A DNA stretch of 64,000 nucleotides from an uncultured Nitrospiraceae bacterium (GCA_963727805.1 CAVSHF010000003.1:960001-1024000); one strand, 5' to 3'. Positions 42 through 35,279 are shown, counted from the stretch's first letter. Numbers and translations are program-made. Notes: generated from the letters alone by a model not told the origin.

Positions 42-162
42 TGGAGAGAGGCAGTGGGAATCGGACCCACTCTCGGTTCATTAATATATGGCAAGCGCTC
101 AATTGCCTTGAACCGTGATGCTGGTTTTGCACACCAGATGAGGCACCAGCCCCATGCCCCCC
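42..162 (-). tRNA. non-canonical tRNA-Cys(GCA)-like RNA with tRNA-Sec-like fold and very long variable arm (copy 1)
   Basis: Minus strand: acceptor GGGGGGCA/TGCCTCTC, D-arm GGGGC-TGGT-GCCTC, anticodon arm CTGGT-GT-GCA-AA-ACCAG, ~50 nt extra arm (CGGTTCA/TGAACCG, GGCAA/TTGCC), T-arm GTGGG-TCCGATT-CCCAC, then T-CCA. Confidence 0.8.
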
Positions 163-340
163 GGAAACAGCTCAGAGTAGAGACGGTCATCTCCTATTAC
201 TTCATCCATACGATGGAAACAGTAGCTTATTTGACCAGATATGGTTTCCGAACCGGAATGGCGAAACTGAAGAGTATTCATATTTTCATTCAATTCGCCT
301 TTATTGATACGTCGTGGGTAGTTGTCTCAGAGAGTGTACT
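163..340 (-). ncRNA. conserved structured leader fused 5' of the tRNA-like domain (copy 1)
   Basis: Colinear and highly similar to 34318-34494; stems GAGAC/GTCTC, GGCGAA/TTCGCC, TTCCG/CGGAA, TCCAT/ATGGA. Confidence 0.6.
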
Positions 341-349
341 ATATTTAAG

Positions 350-373
350 GCCTATGCCTATGCCTATGCCTAT
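350..373. repeat. (GCCTAT)x4 tandem hexamer
   Basis: Four exact units read directly; copy 2 has three degenerate units. Confidence 0.9.
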
Positions 374-397
374 GATAGCCCGGTGGATCATTAGCAG
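372..397 (-). promoter_or_regulatory. putative promoter of the tRNA-like RNA (-10 TATCAT)
   Basis: ctgc-w-aatgatccacc-rr-gctatcatag is conserved with 34521-34546; no good -35. Confidence 0.4.
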
Positions 398-775
398 TTA
401 AATTAATATAGATGATGTCAATATGTAAAATAGATTAATTGAATAGTTTAAACTGGAGTTATAGATTTGTCCCCACAATCTAAAGATGGATGGATGATGA
501 CTGGCTGAGATCCAAGCGTTACATTAAAGTTGCAGATTCGAAATCTACGGGACAGACAGCTTCAAAGAGCCCGCATAGGCCGCATTCAAAATGAATTAAC
601 CGGTGCCCTCTGTCAGCAGGTCGAAAGGCCTTGGCTATTTTATTAGGAAGACCATATTTCTGTAGGAAACCGCACTCGGACTAGCACTCTCCGCATTCAA
701 CGCATTTTTGGCTATCTCAGCCGTCACCGAAAGTGAAGAGATATTCATGTTTGTTCCCCGAGATGTATTCACCTT

Positions 776-22907: not shown

Positions 22908-23733
22908 TAAGGTTAAAGGTAATAATGTCTTCCATGCCCTCTGCCTTTATCTTAAATGTCATCACCCACCATCCAGGCATACTGAATTTCAGCCCTTGTA
23001 CGACATAATCTCCGGCAACTGCACCCTCAGCTACCTCTGGCATAGTTGGAAGGCCGTGCCCATGTTCAGGCATTTCACCACTAAGGACGACTTCCGCGTT
23101 CTTTACGGCGCGACCATCTGCCATCACGACTCTCAATTTCCAGCTGATTATCCTGCCGACCGGGATCGGCATGACATTGCTTGCATATGACGCTCTGAAC
23201 AGTTTTTTTACTGACTCGCGGGCTGCAGATGTGTCGACATCTGCAGGGGCTGAAGAATGCATCATTTTATGCTCATCCTGCGACATTGATGCCGATCTGC
23301 TAACGTCCGGGAAATCGAAGGTGACATTGTCCTCTGTATTGTTCTTCTGAATCTTCAGTCGAAGCTCCCAGCGCCCTTCCATTATTAGGATTATATTTTC
23401 GACGCTATATGTACCCCCGCCCCTCTCTTTGACCACTGGCTTCTCAAAAACACCATGACCCATCTCCGGCATCCAGGGGACGACCTTTATTTCCGCACCG
23501 GCCACATCCTTGTCGCTTTTGTCGTGGACGATTATGTCAAGAGTATTAACTCCCACTTTAAGGTCTTTATCTTTGATCACCATCTCGACAGAGTATACGC
23601 CATTGTCCGTCATCTTGAAGAGGCTCTGCTCATAGTGTTTCGTGTGTTGATCGGCTTCTGAATGACCTGTATGAGCGGCAAACACAATTAACGGGAAAAG
23701 CACAACAGCTATGGCTAATAAAACAGTTCTCAT
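22897..23733 (-). CDS. FixH/YtkA-like double-domain periplasmic protein
   Basis: Signal peptide; WMPEMGHG..MEGRW and MPEHGHG..MPGWW. Confidence 0.85.
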   Translation of the reverse strand: MRTVLLAIAVVLFPLIVFAAHTGHSEADQHTKHYEQSLFKMTDNGVYSVEMVIKDKDLKVGVNTLDIIVHDKSDKDVAGAEIKVVPWMPEMGHGVFEKPVVKERGGGTYSVENIILIMEGRWELRLKIQKNNTEDNVTFDFPDVSRSASMSQDEHKMMHSSAPADVDTSAARESVKKLFRASYASNVMPIPVGRIISWKLRVVMADGRAVKNAEVVLSGEMPEHGHGLPTMPEVAEGAVAGDYVVQGLKFSMPGWWVMTFKIKAEGMEDIITFNLIVP

Positions 23734-24602: not shown

Positions 24603-24794
24603 AAATAATCCTCCTTTGTTGTCGGTCTAAACCGACTTTCGGTTATCTTAAAGATAACGTGTAGCCATATAAAATATAGCTATGATCGATCCGTCAAACA
24701 ACTTCACCGTAAGTTTGTGCAAATCGCCTGTCACCATTACGTCCGCAGTGGTGGAAGAAATCACTGGATTATGTTCATCCAGTGACATGTCTGC

Positions 24795-26129
24795 CTATCC
24801 ACTACTGACCGGGAAGGCAAAGGTGACATTGTCCTCTGCATTGTCCTTTTTAATCTTCAGCCTCATCTCCCAGCGTCCTTCCATTATAAGCACAACATTT
24901 TCTACACTATATGTACCGCCTCCCTTCTCTTTGACTACGGGTTTATCAAAGACCCCATGCCCCATCTCCGGCATCCAGGGGACAACATTCATTTCCGCGC
25001 CAGTTACCTCTTTCCCATTTTTGTCCTGGAGCACGACGTCAAAAGTATTAACTCCCACCTGAAGAGCTTGATCTTTGATCACAATCTTCACAGAATACAG
25101 ACCATTGGCCGTCATCTTTAACAGACTCTGCTCATTGACCTGTTCCTTACGTTGACTCATGCCACGATCGGTACTCGTTTCAGGATTTGAAAGCGTTCTT
25201 TGTTCGCGTTCCAGCAGCAGCATATGGACAGCATGACGTGCGGGGACTTCTTGTGTGAAAAGAGAGACACAGAAAAGTATCGCCAGTATCAGGAAAGCTT
25301 CGACTCTGCTCCGCTTGAGAAACTTTGTAACGTATGCAGCTTCGTCCTTTCCCTTCTGAGGAGGGGCGATGTATCTTGAAGTGAGATATGCAAAGATAAG
25401 CAACTTGATCGAAAGTAACCGTCCGTAGGTATTCGTCAGAAGTGCCCCGAAGGATCCGACATCTACCCAGGCGTTGTAAAGCCCCGTAAAGACGAGCACA
25501 GCAAAAACAGGACCGAAAAGGACGTAGAACCTGTCAGCTATGCCAGATACGATATGCTGCTGTTCGACGTTGTCCGCTATTTTAGATGCAGAAAACATAA
25601 TCGATATCGTCAGTAGTGTTCCTCCCCAGGAGATAGATGCCAGAAGATGGAACCAGTCTGATAATTCCTGCAGGCTAAAGTCTCCGTTGTCTGCACCGTG
25701 GCTTGTCGCACTGCGTGAAAAGGCAATGGCAGCGCAGGCTAAAAGCAATACAATAGCTATAATACGTGAATTCAGATGCCGATTCCCCAGCCACCAAACA
25801 CACCAGGCTAAGACGATACCAACCGCCCTCACGAGCCACATGCTTCCATAATGCGAACTGAACAGAACAGTTGGCAATACAGGGACTATTTCCGTGATGC
25901 CCAGACCTGCCATCACCATAGCTCGCTGCACAAGGAGGCCTAAGCTGCTGATGCTCAGTCCGACAAGGCAAAATAAGAGCAGCCTGCGGCAACCGTCAGA
26001 ACATTGGTTGGTTGGTGAGTCGACGGATACCGGGCGCATAGTCCAGAAAAGGCAAAGGATAGTGCCAACGAACAAGGATAGCGCCGAAAGATCGATGAAC
26101 GGCATCAAGCTATGCAGAAATATATCCAT
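24795..26129 (-). CDS. copD: CopD copper-uptake protein fused to a C-terminal YtkA domain
   Basis: SHYG..W..R; TSHGA; HLLA.ISWGG; TG.YN; YGRLL.IK; tail WMPEMGHG; RBS GAGG before MDIF. Confidence 0.85.
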   Translation of the reverse strand: MDIFLHSLMPFIDLSALSLFVGTILCLFWTMRPVSVDSPTNQCSDGCRRLLLFCLVGLSISSLGLLVQRAMVMAGLGITEIVPVLPTVLFSSHYGSMWLVRAVGIVLAWCVWWLGNRHLNSRIIAIVLLLACAAIAFSRSATSHGADNGDFSLQELSDWFHLLASISWGGTLLTISIMFSASKIADNVEQQHIVSGIADRFYVLFGPVFAVLVFTGLYNAWVDVGSFGALLTNTYGRLLSIKLLIFAYLTSRYIAPPQKGKDEAAYVTKFLKRSRVEAFLILAILFCVSLFTQEVPARHAVHMLLLEREQRTLSNPETSTDRGMSQRKEQVNEQSLLKMTANGLYSVKIVIKDQALQVGVNTFDVVLQDKNGKEVTGAEMNVVPWMPEMGHGVFDKPVVKEKGGGTYSVENVVLIMEGRWEMRLKIKKDNAEDNVTFAFPVSSG

Positions 26130-27528: not shown

Positions 27529-27686
27529 TTCTAAAACCTCCATATTTTTATGTTCAACATCCCTAAAGTAAGGCCGTATGGTGCCTGCTTCCTTCCACTG
27601 TTTGTCAAAAGCAAGAGAAATATCCAAGTGGTGACCTCTGCCTTGCACATACCAAATCTGGATATTTCAGACAGACAGTTTCGAAT

Positions 27687-28019
27687 CTAGCTTGCATACT
27701 CTGGGGGAGGATAATCTTGAAAGACTATCAATAAAGCGCTAGGTGTGAAACTCGATGCAGTATAACCCCCGACATAATGCATTGAAGCAGATAGGTATGC
27801 ACTTTCGTGGACAACGGGCGTGTCAATGCTCTTCTGAATCCCCTCTGTCGAAGCGTGGCAGACCTCTAGTGTAGCAATGCATGGCACGCTGGAGTTTGTA
27901 GACATGCATATATTTACTTTTGGCATTATTGATAAGACCAGACAGATTACACTTATTACCGGAATAAGTTTCGCGAAGTTTGCTATATCCAAAAAACCTT
28001 GCGATGATTTTATTTGCAT
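27687..28019 (-). CDS. DUF2946-like leader protein (TM, LEVCH, C-terminal YPPP)
   Basis: Paralog of 29958-30260; first ORF upstream of the cop operon. Confidence 0.6.
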   Translation of the reverse strand: MQIKSSQGFLDIANFAKLIPVISVICLVLSIMPKVNICMSTNSSVPCIATLEVCHASTEGIQKSIDTPVVHESAYLSASMHYVGGYTASSFTPSALLIVFQDYPPPEYAS

Positions 28020-29790: not shown

Positions 29791-29957
29791 GCTTCCCCCT
29801 TTTGTATCAGGCTAAAAGCCTTTATGATTCGTTGCTCTTCTTATTAAATTCGTTAGATTTCAACAAACTATCACTTGCAGTAGAACTACCGATTGACACA
29901 TCTCAACCCTGCGCCGCGCATATGTCACCTGGGCATTTCAGTCGAACTGTTTCGAAG

Positions 29958-30260
29958 TTAACTTGTTGATTCTGGGGGAGGGTATTCTTGAAAGACTATC
30001 AGTACAAGGCTAGGCGTTGAACTCAATGTAGTATGAGTTCCAGTAGAGTTCCATGGACCAAACAGCTCAGAATCGCCAATAACTGAGGAGGTGTCAATAA
30101 TTCTCTGAATCCCTGATGTCGGATGGCAGACTTCAAGCTTACCGATGTATCGTTCCGCTGGACTTATATGAATGTTGACGAGTCCAGTCGGCATTAGGGA
30201 AACTATGAGCACGATCAGGATTATTCCCGAAAGCAGTTTCACAGCATTTGCAATGTTCAA
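29958..30260 (-). CDS. DUF2946-like leader protein (paralog; TTG start or 5' frameshift)
   Basis: TM, LEVCH, IVFQEYPPPESTS. Confidence 0.55.
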   Translation of the reverse strand: MNIANAVKLLSGIILIVLIVSLMPTGLVNIHISPAERYIGKLEVCHPTSGIQRIIDTSSVIGDSELFGPWNSTGTHTTLSSTPSLVLIVFQEYPPPESTS

Positions 30261-31023: not shown

Positions 31024-31168
31024 CTAGTTCTTTTCATTATATCTTTGCTTCGTCTTAAGTAGAAGTTCCGCGGGTAGCCGGACCTCCTGATAGCAATGTA
31101 GGCAAGGGAGATCATTTCTCGGTAATATACCACTGTATAAAAAAATCATGAGTGTTATCGACTGACAT
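31024..31168 (-). pseudogene. truncated, frameshifted radical SAM enzyme N-terminus
   Basis: RBS GAGG; MSVDNTHDFFIQWYITEK, then TG-AT (TGCAAT minus 2 nt), then shifted frame LPCLHCYQE, giving QW.ITEKCNLPCLHCY. Confidence 0.75.
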
Positions 31169-31215
31169 GGTAATTCCTCATTTGAGAACATGGTGAGCTC
31201 TATTCGTTAATAAAG

Positions 31216-31258
31216 AAAGCAGATACGTGTGACTGAATCATTAGTACGTATCTGCTTT
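31216..31258 (-). terminator. intrinsic terminator between the peptide and the radical SAM remnant
   Basis: AAAGCAGATACGT/ACGTATCTGCTTT followed by CTTTATT. Confidence 0.75.
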
Positions 31259-31270
31259 CATACTGCTTTG

Positions 31271-31287
31271 GCTGCCAACCTGGCAGC
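31271..31287 (-). promoter_or_regulatory. SECIS-like hairpin
   Basis: GCTGCCA-GGT-TGGCAGC; the loop lies 27 and 18 nt after two in-frame UGA codons. Confidence 0.6.
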
Positions 31288-31289
31288 GT

Positions 31290-31409
31290 TTAACTCTTTC
31301 AACTGCTTCACTTGCGGCATATCTTGCCCGGACTAGCAGTCGTTTTCTTGAGCCTGTCCCAGAGGGCTGCCTCTTGCGTGAGAACCTTAGTGCTCAATTC
31401 TTTCTTCAT
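31290..31409 (-). CDS. 39-aa putative selenopeptide / RiPP precursor MKKELSTKVLTQEAALWDRLKKTTASPGKICRKUSSUKS
   Basis: SD GGAGGTGA 7 nt before ATG; in-frame TGA at 31308-31310 and 31299-31301; TAA at 31290-31292. Confidence 0.65.
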
Positions 31410-31426
31410 CCCGTCTTCACCTCCTC

Positions 31427-31752
31427 TCCGAATAATCGGATTTAGCATGCCAAATAACAGCCCAGTCAATCCTTGGGCAGTGAAATTATTAGAGCCGTAC
31501 AACTCGCTTCGGGCTGATAATCACTGCTTTAGGCACTTTCATCACCATTGCCGGATTAAAGTTATCCCTGTGCTTGTCATACAGCTCTTTATTTCTGCAA
31601 TGCATTCTGGGGGACCATAGCTCTTTTTACATTTGGGTTCTTCCACGGATGCTTCAGGCTTCCCTCTCGCTGCTAAGGGCTTGCTCACCACATCCGACAC
31701 TCAGTCCCTTTCTCGTCATTGTTCCTATGGCTAACCCAAGAATGACATTGCA
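31427..31752 (-). ncRNA. long structured 5' leader or ncRNA with four hairpin domains
   Basis: TGCAATG/CATTGCA, CATTCT/AGAATG, GCCATAG/CTATGGT, CGGATGT/GCATCCG; GAGCTGTATGAC/GTTGTACGGCTC; GCCCA/TGGGC; TCCGA/TCGGA; G-U pairs work only on the minus strand. Confidence 0.6.
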
Positions 31753-32098
31753 AGTCCTTCTTGATTGAAGCATAGCCCTAACACAAGAGAAATTAAATCA
31801 GACAAAAGCTAATTTTGTAGTCAGTCTTGTCCTACAAAGGAAATCGGGCAACAAATACAAAACTGTCTGCCTTCTTCAATGCAATCATCTTTTTTGACCT
31901 TGGAAGTCCTCTTTGGTCTGTCTCACTTCAGCATGATGATGAATATTGAAGCTTTTGATCGGAAATGCACGTCTAACATCTTCAAGTCCTTCGAAAGGAG
32001 CATATATTGCATATTTCATTCATTGTCATTGGTCTCCCTCATTTTGTTGCATCATTCGGGGAGAAGACGGCGCCCTGTCCCCGCATGATGAACGACAA

Positions 32099-32920
32099 TT
32101 AAGATATCTTCGCTGCCTTGGCGATCGGTGGGGTCGGGATATTCGAGCCGTGACGTTCGATGCAGTTGCTCTGAGCAGTGATACCGTAGTTTGCAGAAGA
32201 TACAGTACCATTCGTTTCGTACTTGCCGTCCTTCCAGGCATTCAAAAGTTTGACAACATGATAGACCGTGCTTGCGGTGACGCGGGCACAACGGTCCTTT
32301 CGTTCGGGGCTCTTAAGATCTTTGTCTGCTGCCTTCATCCATTTGCAGACCGATATGTGGCAAAAAGGAGAATCGCTGACTGTTTTAGGAAGGACAGTTT
32401 TGATCCTGGGATTGCTGGGCGTGAAGATCGGCATCTGCGCATTGGCATACCAATCAAGCATTTCGCCTCCCATCAGCGCGCCATCTTCAGACCCGGCTAT
32501 CCGAGGCTTATTATCATATTGGCCACTATATTGGCTCCCATAGGCGCGCCGCAGATGGTCCCCCATCCCATGATTCCACCTTCGAGAAGGAGCAAGAGTC
32601 TATATGAAAAGACTTGTATGGCTCTCCAACTTTCTCTCTCAGCTGAGTGAAGACGCTGCTGATCACGGCCGCGCCGCAAAGAGTCGACACCATTCATTAT
32701 GGGCAAGTGCAGCGGTTTGCGCAGGGTCAAGCTTCACATACGGCCATGGCCATTTTTCTGTCGGCCCTTCCCTGGCTTCCGCGTTAGAAAGTAAGTTCCC
32801 GAGCTGATCGGCAGTCGAGCCGATAGCTAATAATCCTGCACCTGCAATGAACTTTCTTCTTGAAACCGTGTCGTTTCCGGATACCTTTTTTTTAATCCTC
32901 CTTTGTATGAAATTATTCAA
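32099..32920 (-). pseudogene. split-Soret cytochrome c / C_GCAxxG_C_C-family pseudogene with three frameshifts
   Basis: Tat SRRKFI and WPWPYVKLDP / CGAAVISSVF..GEPY / GG..GWGTICGA / SPFCHISV.KW..ERKDRCAR are separated by frameshifts; terminal CxxCH reads CIERH. Confidence 0.8.
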
Positions 32921-32983
32921 ATAATGCGAATCTCCTGATCCGGCGTGGATGACTATAGACGTTCATCCTTGTCTTTATCCGAC

Positions 32984-34072
32984 CTAGTCCTTCATTGGCT
33001 TGATGAACATGAAGTAGACCATCGTCCAGTTGCCGAGGATTATAAATATGGTCGCCACGATGCTTGATAGGGCGAGGGATGAAACGCCGGTCAACGCATG
33101 ACCTACGGTGCATCCCCCTGCAGTCGCTGCTCCAAAGCCCATAACGAGGCTGCCAAGGAAAACCCGTATGATTTCATTCGCCGGAGGGGCCTGTAATTTG
33201 AATTCGCCGAGTCCTTTGGCGCTAATGTAAGCGCCTAGTGGAATACCCAAAATATATAAAGCACTCCAGGTGCCCTTGAAAATCCCCCAAAAATTAAACA
33301 TAGGATCGAATTTGGACATACTGTCTCCCATCGTCACGGCTAGGAATGCCTCTGCCGTCGGTCCCGCCGCCGAAAGGCCTCGTGTCTGCCCTCCCCAGTA
33401 ATTTGATGCCCAGAGCGCAAAGATAAGGATCACGCCGATCATGGCGCCGGTGAGGGACCATGAATAGCCTTTCCTCGGTCCCTTGGCAAAGGGCTTCCCT
33501 TTCAGGACAATCGGAATGATGATGAGAGCGATAACGCCGATGACTGCCCATTTCATCGATAACCCGCCAAAGATATCCCACAACGCAGGGTTGAAGACGG
33601 CCTCATCGCCGCTGCCAATCGAAACTTTGTAGCTCTTCAGGAATTCCATGACTGGTTTGAGGGGACCATGATAGGTAGCGATAAGAGAAGAGGCAAAACC
33701 GAGAGTGGCCACGAGAGCGGATGTATAGCCTTCTCCCACACGGTATATTATGCCGCTACCGCAACCGCCGGCCATCACAATGCCAAGTCCGAAGACATAG
33801 CCGCCGACCATATTGGCGATAACATTGAAGGATTGCCTCCTGAGACCGAAATCACCCATAAATCCGAAGTCTTCAAGCAGATTCGCGCCAATGATTGCGA
33901 TCAAAAGTGCCAGCAGATATGACCGGAATAAGGTAAAGTCTTCGAGAAATATGATGTCTCTAAAAGCCGAATTCATGCAGTAACGACCTCTCTGAAGAAC
34001 AAAACCGAAAAGAATACCGACAAAGAGCCCACTTGCCAATACCATAAAACTTGCCTGCTGGACTTCCTCCAT
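32984..34072 (-). CDS. yeeE: YeeE/YedE (TsuA-like) sulfur-compound transporter
   Basis: FGFVLQRGRYC; G.VMAGGCGSG; GFGA..AGGCTVG; multi-TM. Confidence 0.9.
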   Translation of the reverse strand: MEEVQQASFMVLASGLFVGILFGFVLQRGRYCMNSAFRDIIFLEDFTLFRSYLLALLIAIIGANLLEDFGFMGDFGLRRQSFNVIANMVGGYVFGLGIVMAGGCGSGIIYRVGEGYTSALVATLGFASSLIATYHGPLKPVMEFLKSYKVSIGSGDEAVFNPALWDIFGGLSMKWAVIGVIALIIIPIVLKGKPFAKGPRKGYSWSLTGAMIGVILIFALWASNYWGGQTRGLSAAGPTAEAFLAVTMGDSMSKFDPMFNFWGIFKGTWSALYILGIPLGAYISAKGLGEFKLQAPPANEIIRVFLGSLVMGFGAATAGGCTVGHALTGVSSLALSSIVATIFIILGNWTMVYFMFIKPMKD

Positions 34073-34187
34073 AGAGCTTCTCCTTTTTCTTCAATTAATC
34101 ATTTGTGTGGCAATGCCACGACTACCGAATTATCTCCTTTCGTCCATATGACGAACGACCAAGCCGACTTTTTCAAAAAAGGAACAA

Positions 34188-34317
34188 TGGAGGGGAGCAG
34201 TGGGAATCGAACCCACCACGGCACCTTATGAGTGCGACACACTGCTTTGACGCCCGTATGTCTTTAGCCGTGACACTGGTTTTGCAGACCAGGTGAGGCG
34301 CCAACCCCGTGCCCCCC
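34188..34317 (-). tRNA. non-canonical tRNA-Cys(GCA)-like RNA with tRNA-Sec-like fold and branched ~59 nt variable arm (copy 2)
   Basis: Acceptor GGGGGGCA/TGCTCCCC; D-arm GGGGT-TGGC-GCCTC; anticodon arm CTGGT-CT-GCA-AA-ACCAG; T-arm GTGGG-TTCGATT-CCCAC; T-CCA. Confidence 0.85.
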
Positions 34318-34494
34318 GGGAACAGCTCACAAAAGAGACGGCTCCCGCCTTTTACGCTATCCGTACAACGGAAACAGCAGGTTATTTGACTTGATATGGG
34401 TTCCGAACTGGAACGGCGAAACTGAAGGGTATTCATATCTTCATTCGGTTCGCCTTTTTTGATACGTCGTGGGAAGTTGTCTCGGAGAGTGTCC
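34318..34494 (-). ncRNA. conserved structured leader fused 5' of the tRNA-like domain (copy 2)
   Basis: GGACA/TGTTC, GAGAC/GTCTC, TTCCC/GGGAG, GGCGAA/TTCGCC, TGAAG/CTTCA, TCCGT/ACGGA; possible GATATG/CATATC pseudoknot. Confidence 0.65.
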
Positions 34495-35279
34495 TATATT
34501 GAAGGCCTATGCCCATGTCTATGATAGCTTGGTGGATCATTTGCAGATAATTTAGTATTGCTTCAATATATATGTCAAATTGTTTTTGTGGATGGCTTAA
34601 ACGGGAGTAATAGATTTGTCGCTACAATCCAAAAACTGGCGGACGCCGAATGGCGGAGAATGCGGGCGTAACATTAAAGTTACCGGTAACCAACGGTGTC
34701 CCTGAAATATCCGATGCGTTGACTTTTTGGTAACATCAAATAAATGTTCCAGCGATGTTCCTATAATCGACAATGCACTCGACACGGTGAAGACGCTTTG
34801 TTTCAATAAGTAATCGAGAGCGGTACTGTTCGTCAATCTTTACCGAGTTCGTCTCCCTGTCATGTTTGTGAGCGTATAGATAAAAGATTCTCTCAGAGGA
34901 AAAGAACGATAGTTGAGATAATATTTTGAAAGTAATTTGCTATAATTAAACGAATAATAAGAGGTTTATGCTCCACTTTAATCTGCTAGCGTGATATCTT
35001 TCATAGCGCCAGAAGAAGACAGGGGTAGCTGTAAATATGTAACGCCTCGAAGCAGGCTAAGTTCAGTCATCTGATAAAAGGGTGCAATTGATCTCTTTTG
35101 GAAAAAACATCTTTGGCCGGAAGTCGTCTCCAACCAAGACATCTACGCTAACTTCGGGCAACTCCCTCCAAAAGTATTTATCTCGCATCACAAAAGATCG
35201 ATCTGTTGCTAACGGTGATATAATCAAGTTTCAGACCTCAAGCAAGACAACAGCGATCGTAAACAGGTGGAGATAGACC

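Follow-up and report, generated by a model that had tools for sequence, protein, structure and literature searches.

A selC*/tRNA-ReC-type cysteine tRNA ahead of yeeE in an uncultured Nitrospiraceae bacterium: selenium-associated neighbourhoods of a recurrent unit and two separate units beside it

Do six co-oriented elements that crowd together in a bacterial genome form a single system, or have they come to lie side by side by accident? The question is raised by a stretch of 64,000 nucleotides from an uncultured Nitrospiraceae bacterium (GCA_963727805.1 CAVSHF010000003.1:960001-1024000; hereafter "the window", with positions counted from its first letter), in which a tRNA with its leader, the transporter gene yeeE, a broken cytochrome-like gene, a structured RNA, a small open reading frame (ORF) with a UGA codon near its end and the remnant of a radical SAM gene all occupy the minus strand within 3.6 kb (31051-34620; Table 1). 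A preliminary description had read these parts as one integrated module, partly decayed in this strain, that balances the supply of cysteine (Cys) and selenocysteine (Sec) for a chalcogen-rich peptide. All of the parts that it named exist, are co-oriented and lie at or near the places it gave them, and its impression of decay is borne out by the frameshifted cytochrome-like gene and the 40-codon radical SAM stump. We find, with a probability of about 0.62 for the explanation as a whole, that the six-part stretch is best explained as a chance juxtaposition of three units, a local accident in decaying DNA, the core of which is a transcription unit with a tRNA of the selC*/tRNA-ReC class that would be made together with chalcogen-handling genes in a response to selenium status. 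Unit 1 (32099-34620) comprises a promoter, a leader of ~210 nt, a tRNA-Cys, yeeE and a dead split-Soret-like gene; unit 2 (31573-31771) is one copy of a separate structured-RNA gene family and no part of the tRNA unit; and unit 3 (31051-31409) is made up of the small UGA ORF, a hairpin resembling a selenocysteine insertion sequence (SECIS) and the radical SAM/SPASM remnant. Read 5' to 3' along the minus strand, the order is promoter block, leader, tRNA, yeeE, broken gene, structured RNA, UGA ORF, two hairpins and radical SAM stump, and of all these only the tRNA, yeeE and split-Soret-like gene recur across genomes as a unit.

What is reported here on the anatomy of the tRNA, on its covariation and distribution and on its linkage comes from our own analysis. 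Two copies lie in the window, copy B before yeeE and a sister, copy A, and both fold as a Sec-type cloverleaf with an 8-bp acceptor, a long D stem of 5-6 bp with a small loop, a 5-bp T stem (an acceptor/T branch of 8+5, i.e. 13 bp), a very long variable arm and an encoded CCA, the anticodon loop reading CUGCAAA or GUGCAAA. ARAGORN, and Rfam at its gathering threshold, did not report copy B, which at a permissive threshold matches the Rfam tRNA-Sec model end to end at 46.1 bits (gathering score 47), copy A matching the full model at 44.7 bits; with a covariance model built from 13 relatives (R1), copy B scores 117.6 bits. Across the 151 genomes of the order that form our order-wide set, R1 yields 82 matches of at least 64.9 bits in 76 genomes, together with a lower score class of 96-98-nt matches near 53-59 bits that we take to be true selC. 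Anticodons were inspected in the 39 sequences of an alignment rather than in all 82 matches, and GCA, G1:C72 and U73-CCA are present in 39 of 39. In the same alignment both partners have changed in 18 of the 31 pairs, and pairing holds in 98.3% of cells, a share that drops to 47-57% once the partners are slid. The length of the variable arm varies between 16 and 55 nt, its long forms being a stem that bears two hairpins, and the T loop reads TTCGA or TTCAA everywhere except in copy A, where the altered loop TCCGA suggests that this copy may be decaying. The host genome also possesses a true selC, which scores 69 bits and has the anticodon UCA, as well as a conventional tRNA-Cys(GCA) of 75 nt.

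This tRNA belongs to an already published class, found here in an informative selenium-regulon context. Both copies agree with the operational definition of selC*/tRNA-ReC that appears in excerpts of a 2026 paper (at least 80 nt, a GCA or UCA anticodon, and U73; PMC13582414), and they show the fold features of selC* (8-bp acceptor, long D stem with a small loop, long variable arm), with a T stem of 5 rather than 4 bp. The selC* tRNA-Cys class was defined by Mukai et al. (2017, NAR; PMC5389517), the relevant passages of which list Thermodesulfovibrio and a "Nitrospirae type", and parts of both sources report decoding by this class in E. coli. The excerpts of the 2026 paper, which cite Vargas-Rodriguez et al. 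(2018, RNA Biol), state that tRNA-ReC reads a UGA with a SECIS behind it as Cys, that this holds for the UCA and GCA forms alike, and that its sharing of work with tRNA-Sec "remains unclear". By this published work, in the portions cited, the tRNA of the window would likewise be charged with Cys, carried by SelB and able to read UGA. The words LysR, YedE, YedF and sulfur are absent from the main text of Mukai et al. (2017), as are yedE, yeeE and rhodanese from its supplement.

The company that the tRNA keeps is informative in this respect (neighbour counts refer to the 30 best tRNA loci unless stated otherwise). In 12 of the 30 a co-oriented LysR gene lies directly upstream; 11 of these adjacent proteins, scanned together with one from a locus outside the 30, all pass NF040786, "selenium metabolism-associated LysR" (LysR_Sec_metab), at 288-326 bits against a cut-off of 250 (12/12), and the remaining twelfth adjacent protein also passes, at 318 bits. 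Directly downstream lies yeeE in 7/30 loci and three further genomes, a YedF/TusA-type gene in 4/30 (one confirmed as TIGR03527, the other three matching no family at a limit of E <= 1e-62), and a C_GCAxxG/split-Soret-like gene in 4/30 and one further genome, while a transglutaminase-like gene adjoins the tRNA in 3/30 and unrelated genes are found at the remaining loci. The tRNA always has the same orientation as the next gene. At least one selenium- or sulfur-linked neighbour is present at 21 of the 30 loci, and LysR_Sec_metab, one yeeE subclade and YedF recur as neighbours over at least six families of the order. The locus of one complete relative, for example, reads LysR, tRNA, yeeE, a 95-aa ORF, a beta-propeller gene, a split-Soret-like gene, an ArsS radical SAM gene (357.7 bits, cut-off 300) and yedF (196.2 bits, cut-off 110). 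A scan with the YeeE protein, some of whose loci probably come from the same genomes as the tRNA-locus set, returned 32 loci, 12 of them at 70% identity or more; the tRNA is present in 7 of the 9 of these with upstream DNA, versus 0/20 loci of a paralogous yeeE clade (48-68% identity). Taken with the LysR and neighbour counts, these figures tie the tRNA to one yeeE subclade and to selenium-associated genes. Consequently, the part of the preliminary description that linked the tRNA, yeeE and the cytochrome-like gene is upheld, since the three recur together and in selenium neighbourhoods (LysR_Sec_metab, YedF, ArsS). As a separate observation, one relative has a second, 5'-truncated tRNA copy (L032:2093-2185, minus strand; 77.3 bits) with a short variable arm, 2 kb downstream of the full copy and before transglutaminase-like and YedF-like genes.

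Within the window, YeeE reaches the gathering score of its Pfam family, and, as far as inspection by eye can tell, no convincing SECIS-like hairpin follows the codon for its active-site Cys. In a same-genus assembly (79% complete) the tRNA-adjacent yeeE (L035:2084-3316) diverges after GGCTV and runs to 410 aa, which looks like a frameshift or an assembly error. The broken gene that follows yeeE in the window aligns (32114-32884) over 258 residues at 59% identity to an intact same-genus orthologue of 261 aa, which has a twin-arginine translocation (Tat)-type signal and a C-terminal CTECH and scores 33.6 bits with PF09719 (threshold 27) and, with the split-Soret cytochrome c model (NF047622), 158.8 bits where the cut-off is 400. 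The intact frame, CxxCH and cysteines of a split-Soret/C_GCAxxG_C_C protein are missing from the window copy: CIERH replaces CTECH, the frame is lost over residues ~68-128, and single-base frame changes, at least three in number, fall at about 32680, 32590 and 32505, beside short homopolymers. Assembly error is unlikely as their cause, given that short contigs are letter-identical across the sites. These short contigs, which come from public runs of two other studies and cover 32304-32704, are identical to the window without gaps (run X1, possibly the source sample, 32537-32704; X2, 32304-32454 and 32429-32594; X4, 32410-32560), and we therefore regard the frame breaks as real rather than as long-read errors. 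Further downstream, positions 31778 and 32079 are linked in a contig of run X5 by 97 other letters, so that the 300-nt interval that separates the broken gene from the structured RNA evidently varies among strains; a 44-aa ORF in this interval (31778-32079) has no Pfam match.

How the tRNA is transcribed may be approached through its upstream region. A motif ATAG-N-YCTAWTTKAH, a dyad that overlaps the -35 box and has the core ATAGA-N-TCTAT, occurs no more than 160 nt upstream of the tRNA in 15/30 loci, and at least its half motif in 17/30, whether or not LysR adjoins. In 15 of these 17 its distance from the 5' end of the tRNA is 41-47 nt, the position that it has in genera other than that of the window, and this spacing suggests that transcription starts at or just before the tRNA. 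In the window's own genus the promoter block lies ~220-270 nt upstream, and the leader thus appears to have been added there; a scan for promoter-like sites places TTGACA-18-TAAATT at 34578-34549. The ~400 nt upstream of copies A and B are 83% identical, and the leader, in which small hairpins can be discerned by eye, is conserved in same-genus genomes only; that of copy B has no match in Rfam. A coding role for the leader was considered, given that in each copy an ORF extends into the tRNA, but rejected, as substitutions show no synonymous bias by eye. Apart from copy A, an operator search over the host genome returned no more than a single half-site, which stands ahead of a response-regulator gene and is probably due to chance. 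By analogy with the known selenium-associated LysR regulators, LysR_Sec_metab may bind the ATAGA-N-TCTAT site. Downstream, the Shine-Dalgarno sequence of yeeE starts ~10 nt past the CCA in three genera and no terminator-like site was found by a scan of the 115 nt between tRNA and yeeE in the window, from which we infer that both are carried on one transcript. At six loci from several families (L046, L047, L048, L049, L056 and L068) a conserved motif, TTATAAYTTGAAGTTGACA or, as a palindrome, CAACTTCAAGTTG, is found 20-60 nt past the tRNA and before the next gene, possibly as a second operator or promoter; the 9-mer occurs 49 times in the host genome.

This arrangement would also suit a tRNA-shaped element that acts mainly in cis, as a 5' part of the messages for yeeE, yedF and hydrogenase whose processing by RNase P and 3' nucleases sets their 5' end, stability or translation. 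The ribosome-binding site of the next gene lies only ~10-20 nt past the CCA in several genera, orientation always follows that gene, and both the 16-55 nt span of the variable arm and the altered T loop of copy A are compatible with such a role. However, a mere processing signal would not need the GCA anticodon, U33-like loop, U73 and CCA that are kept in 39/39 sequences, or a T loop with a single exception; decoding by the class in E. coli has been reported, as cited above; and some loci have the tRNA before unrelated genes or a separate promoter, all of which makes a mainly cis-acting role unlikely in our judgement.

A selenium-status response of the tRNA unit is suggested by analogy with hydrogenases. 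Copy A, which is indeed flanked by two rhodanese genes (776-1579 and 1925-2479), as had been remarked in the preliminary description, lies 107 nt upstream of an NiFe hydrogenase operon outside the window (small and large subunits, cytochrome b, protease), whose large subunit carries RFCGVC and DPCMAC and is of the Cys type. A paralogue elsewhere in the host genome (G000:C3:1352683-1354389; 76% identical) has an in-frame TGA where the first motif would have its second Cys (RICGV-U-TTVH), with a hairpin behind it, and among 38 NiFe large-subunit matches in 41 related genomes 25 have one or two in-frame TGA codons, 12 have none and one has a TAA. One same-genus genome has a single tRNA, then yeeE, then a TGA-type hydrogenase in a row. 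In Methanococcus, an orthologue of LysR_Se/HrsM, a LysR subfamily tied to selenium use, controls Cys-type hydrogenase isoenzymes by selenium supply, according to passages of Lin et al. (2015, GBE; PMC5322559), and it is this analogy that leads us to a selenium-status reading of the tRNA unit. The replacement of the second Cys of the N-terminal RxCGxC motif by TGA is seen in the host genome and in one relative; a 2026 paper reports an N-terminal Sec only for Group 4 enzymes, and the hydrogenases considered here are of the periplasmic type.

Under the mechanism that we propose, the tRNA would unite a shape recognised by SelB (13-bp acceptor/T branch, long D stem, long variable arm) with the identity marks of Cys (GCA, U73), and, once charged with Cys, would be carried by SelB to UGA codons with a SECIS, where Cys would be inserted in place of Sec. 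It would be driven by a promoter that overlaps the dyad, often directly behind a LysR_Sec_metab gene, and its position directly before chalcogen-handling genes from families with Sec and Cys forms (YeeE, YedF, C_GCAxxG/split-Soret-like proteins and NiFe(Se) hydrogenase) suggests that it may be made together with them when selenium status changes. The "balance" of Cys and Sec in the preliminary description comes close to the role that the excerpts of PMC13582414 give the class, namely Cys at Sec codons, although it does not extend to the structured RNA or to the peptide and its radical SAM gene. A more specific form of this mechanism is a selenium-sparing switch, which we put forward as a tentative possibility that more probably fails than holds: selenium shortage would lead LysR_Sec_metab to fire the ATAGA-N-TCTAT promoters, and the products would be the YeeE importer, a Cys-type hydrogenase and the SelB-compatible Cys-tRNA, by which UGA codons with a SECIS, including those of the one- and two-UGA hydrogenases and of the CxxU peptide described below, would be re-read as Cys. 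If true, such a switch would give tRNA-ReC a defined physiological job and a regulator. What is new here is order-wide evidence for a dyad-bearing tRNA promoter, for the company of a selenium-associated LysR, for fusion to one yeeE subclade and for a place before Cys/Sec-switching hydrogenases, and the hypothesis that tRNA-ReC is expressed within a selenium-status regulon thereby becomes directly testable.

Several observations weigh against a selenium-status response of the tRNA unit. Cys charging and SelB binding of this tRNA are assumed from passages, themselves excerpts, that cite the 2018 paper. No LysR_Sec_metab gene stands beside the tRNA in the window, the two copies of the host genome lying elsewhere, and at 9/30 tRNA loci any selenium- or sulfur-linked neighbour is lacking. 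In copy A the half motif survives, but the operator of copy B is degenerate, and 13/30 loci lack even the half motif by pattern, although one of them (L048) has a variant that the pattern misses. At 6/30 loci the interval from the tRNA to the next gene holds a further motif with a -35 box, TTGAAGTTGACA, and this argues against co-transcription at those loci. Moreover, one same-genus genome keeps the leader before a Cys-type hydrogenase operon with only a 24-bit tRNA remnant, and another same-genus Cys-type operon has neither leader nor tRNA, so that the Cys-hydrogenase operon can evidently do without the tRNA. Finally, counts over related genomes are not independent samples.

A second alternative, in which the element is an extra tRNA-Cys isoacceptor that reads UGU and UGC via EF-Tu, its neighbours reflecting the use of tRNA genes as landing sites in a decaying accessory region, must contend with the canonical 75-nt tRNA-Cys(GCA) that the genome already has, with the maintenance by covariation of the 8+5 branch and the Sec-type D arm, and with the recurrence of LysR_Sec_metab, the yeeE subclade and YedF across families. 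The GCA anticodon does match Cys codons, pseudogenes and remnants abound in the region, and contigs of relatives break at the tRNA, as they would at a repeat; on balance we consider this explanation very unlikely, and a SelB-compatible tRNA expressed in response to selenium remains the one that we favour.

Extra paralogues of cysS and selB, which the preliminary description proposed to look for, proved to be a mixed case. The host genome has no second selB or selB* (one selB and EF-Tu-like matches were found), but it does have a second gene resembling that for cysteinyl-tRNA synthetase (CysRS), at G000:C3:1748741-1749952 (locus L093:1495-2715, minus strand), 750 kb from the tRNA. Its 406-aa product scores 320.5 bits against a cut-off of 340, keeps HIGN and KMSKS, lacks the last ~64 model positions and has altered zinc-ligand positions by eye. 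Orthologues at 55-63% identity occur in 21/151 genomes, and the tRNA is present in 13 of these 21 versus 63 of the 130 others, too weak an association for this gene to be accepted as a cysS* partner of the tRNA.

Unit 2 has a history of its own. The segment 31584-31837 has two strong paralogues in the host genome and matches in many relatives, and 16 copies of the RNA can be aligned, each with a TTGACA-type promoter upstream and a rod-like fold of ~170 nt. Under a hand-set structure 75.9% of cells are paired, versus 38-49% when slid, and 25 of 49 modelled pairs have changed on both sides, one small helix being unsupported. A covariance model of this RNA (R2) finds three strong copies and a weak one in the host genome, four copies in one relative and one in most others, and the genes downstream of the copies are unrelated; the weak fourth match (G000:C3:437757-437956) scores 47 bits. 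We conclude that the ~200-nt RNA is a separate, previously undescribed family of the Thermodesulfovibrionales that is absent from Rfam. Identity with 6S RNA was rejected, since the match reaches 29.8 bits against a gathering score of 46.4 and covers model positions 60-130 only, and the true 6S RNA lies elsewhere in the genome at 82.3 bits; the partial match arises because the apical part shares a core with 6S RNA.

Unit 3 corresponds to the 5' region of a radical SAM/SPASM gene of ~350 aa, to which 31050-31436 is homologous and of which an intact paralogue, whose best scores (NirJ2/AhbD) fall far below every cut-off, exists elsewhere in the host genome. In the window the enzyme is neither full-length nor in possession of CxxxCxxC, only residues 1-40 being left, with a frameshift inside the motif region. 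The small ORF occurs in the leader of 14 of 22 orthologous radical SAM loci as well as in the window, where, preceded by a ribosome-binding site GGAGGTGA, its codons occupy 31311-31409 and are followed by UGA (31308-31310), two codons and a stop, for a 34-aa peptide. Its consensus is MKKxL..KEAAxW..LKK..PGKxC[RHQL]K, then UGA, two codons and a stop, the window's version ending CRK-UGA-SS, and the non-consensus fractions of 0.169, 0.144 and 0.358 at codon positions 1, 2 and 3 (33 codons) amount to a coding signature. The UGA is kept at 15/15 loci, with a Cys codon (TGY) in its place at 0/15, and the SECIS-like hairpin, with 97.8% of its cells paired over the 15 loci and covariation in 4 of its 6 pairs, has loops such as AGGUC and GGUCA and a geometry that resembles the hairpin after the UGA of the host's Sec-type hydrogenase. 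A conserved in-frame UGA and a hairpin with a G/U loop at ~20-30 nt, as is usual for bacterial selenoproteins, are therefore found together with the coding signature. The terminator-like hairpin that follows was not reported by an automated terminator scan. The peptide has no Pfam or NCBIfam match, and among the publications listed by a search on SPASM enzymes with Sec-containing precursor peptides nothing resembled it. Judged from its sequence, the small ORF is a candidate CxxU selenopeptide, possibly a substrate of the SPASM enzyme; alternatively, it may end at an ordinary UGA stop, with a regulatory hairpin behind it.

As to the INDEPENDENCE of the three units, the tRNA is present (R1 model) in 0/22 peptide/radical SAM loci and 0/12 structured-RNA loci, and the RNA (R2 model) in 0/24 tRNA loci and in 1/22 radical SAM loci, there on the opposite strand. 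Radical SAM orthologues are found in 20/68 genomes of the family and in 0/5 and 0/8 of two genera that have tRNA-yeeE, and the radical SAM gene in the tRNA clusters of relatives is ArsS (TIGR04167), which belongs to another family than the SPASM remnant of the window. The preliminary description had itself named independent distributions and neighbourhoods as grounds for giving up its module, and for the structured RNA and the peptide/radical SAM pair these are what we observe, so that only the linkage of tRNA, yeeE and cytochrome-like gene is left of it and the six-part assembly appears to be a local accident. That all six parts serve to supply Cys and Sec for a chalcogen-rich peptide is thus highly improbable, even though they share one orientation within 3.6 kb and the UGA ORF, with its SECIS-like hairpin, is a place where a Cys-inserting tRNA could act. 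The by-products of the analysis are an undescribed family of small candidate CxxU seleno-ORFs paired with a SPASM enzyme and the undescribed 6S-like RNA family of the Thermodesulfovibrionales. Past the radical SAM stump, the next intact gene is FtrD-like and part of a neighbouring copper-handling cluster, inside which direct repeats (23237-23536 and 24739-25038, 76% identical; 27638-27763 and 29909-30034, 74%) probably stem from paralogous genes.

Table 1 Features of the three units and of the sister tRNA copy, in window coordinates
Feature	Coordinates	Strand	Remarks
Promoter/operator block of leader B	34531-34620	-	Conserved in 7 leaders of the genus; related to the motif ATAGA-N-TCTATTTGAC
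5' leader of copy B, ~210 nt	34318-34530	-	Between promoter and tRNA; genus-specific
tRNA copy B, selC*/tRNA-ReC-type tRNA-Cys(GCA)	34188-34317	-	130 nt; 8-bp acceptor, 5-bp T stem, U73-CCA, 53-nt branched variable arm
yeeE, YeeE/YedE sulfur-transport family	32984-34072	-	PF04143, 222.8 bits; GGCGSG and GGCTVG motifs
Pseudogene, Tat-signal split-Soret-cytochrome-c-like/C_GCAxxG_C_C	32099-32920	-	At least 3 frame changes; CxxCH reads CIERH
Structured RNA, ~200 nt	31573-31771	-	Own promoter upstream; model R2, 189.7 bits
Small ORF MKKELSTKVLTQEAALWDRLKKTTASPGKICRK-UGA-SS-stop	31299-31409	-	Candidate CxxU selenopeptide; conserved in 15 loci
SECIS-like hairpin	31271-31287	-	6-bp stem, loop AGGUU; starts 23 nt past UGA
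Terminator-like hairpin	31211-31258	-	Between small ORF and radical SAM start; conserved in paralogous leaders; by eye
Radical SAM/SPASM remnant	31051-31174	-	First ~40 codons, one frameshift; tblastn with intact 350-aa paralogue
tRNA copy A (sister)	42-162	-	121 nt; GCA, U73-CCA; upstream of Cys-type NiFe hydrogenase operon
Leader of copy A	163-560	-	Half-operator/-35 motif ATCTATTTTACATATTG at about 434

Several of the elements discussed above have counterparts among known systems. YeeE shares its Pfam family and two conserved Cys-bearing loops with the thiosulfate importer YeeE/TsuA and with YedE, a membrane protein linked to selenium, but falls below the NCBIfam cut-offs of both (245 bits against 400 for TsuA, NF052577; 49 against 200 and 83.5 against 350 for YedE). 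The structured RNA resembles 6S RNA (RF00013) in its rod-like fold of ~200 nt and in an apical core, GGUG.GCA.G...GAAGCCU.A, that the host's true 6S RNA also has, but it differs in its partial, sub-threshold match and in its three strong copies here and usually one per related genome. The small ORF and its enzyme recall SbtA/SbtM, which give a selenopeptide that is made by the ribosome and modified after translation (thio(seleno)oxazole), in that a short ORF with Sec near its C-terminus directly precedes a radical SAM/SPASM enzyme, whereas the SPASM enzyme here scores 133.8 bits against a cut-off of 350 for SbtM and is without the first ~200 residues of that protein. With the LysR_Se/HrsM regulon, the tRNA loci share a regulator of the same NCBIfam family, which flanks the tRNA in relatives, and a Cys-type paralogue of a Sec-type hydrogenase, before which copy A lies; the regulon as described in the passages cited (PMC5322559) has no tRNA, and the window has no adjacent LysR. 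The selC* class itself has in common with the present tRNA the tRNA-Sec-like fold, Sec-type D arm, U73, GCA anticodon and coexistence with a full selC/selB system. It differs in that the acceptor/T branch is 8+5 here rather than 8/4 with a bulge as in delta-proteobacteria, in that the variable arm is branched and up to 55 nt long, and in that no selB* or cysS* adjoins, these being features of the delta-proteobacterial subtype only. Here, in addition, the tRNA is preceded by LysR_Sec_metab and a promoter with a dyad and is followed by yeeE, yedF or hydrogenase genes, with a leader of ~210 nt added in the genus of the window.

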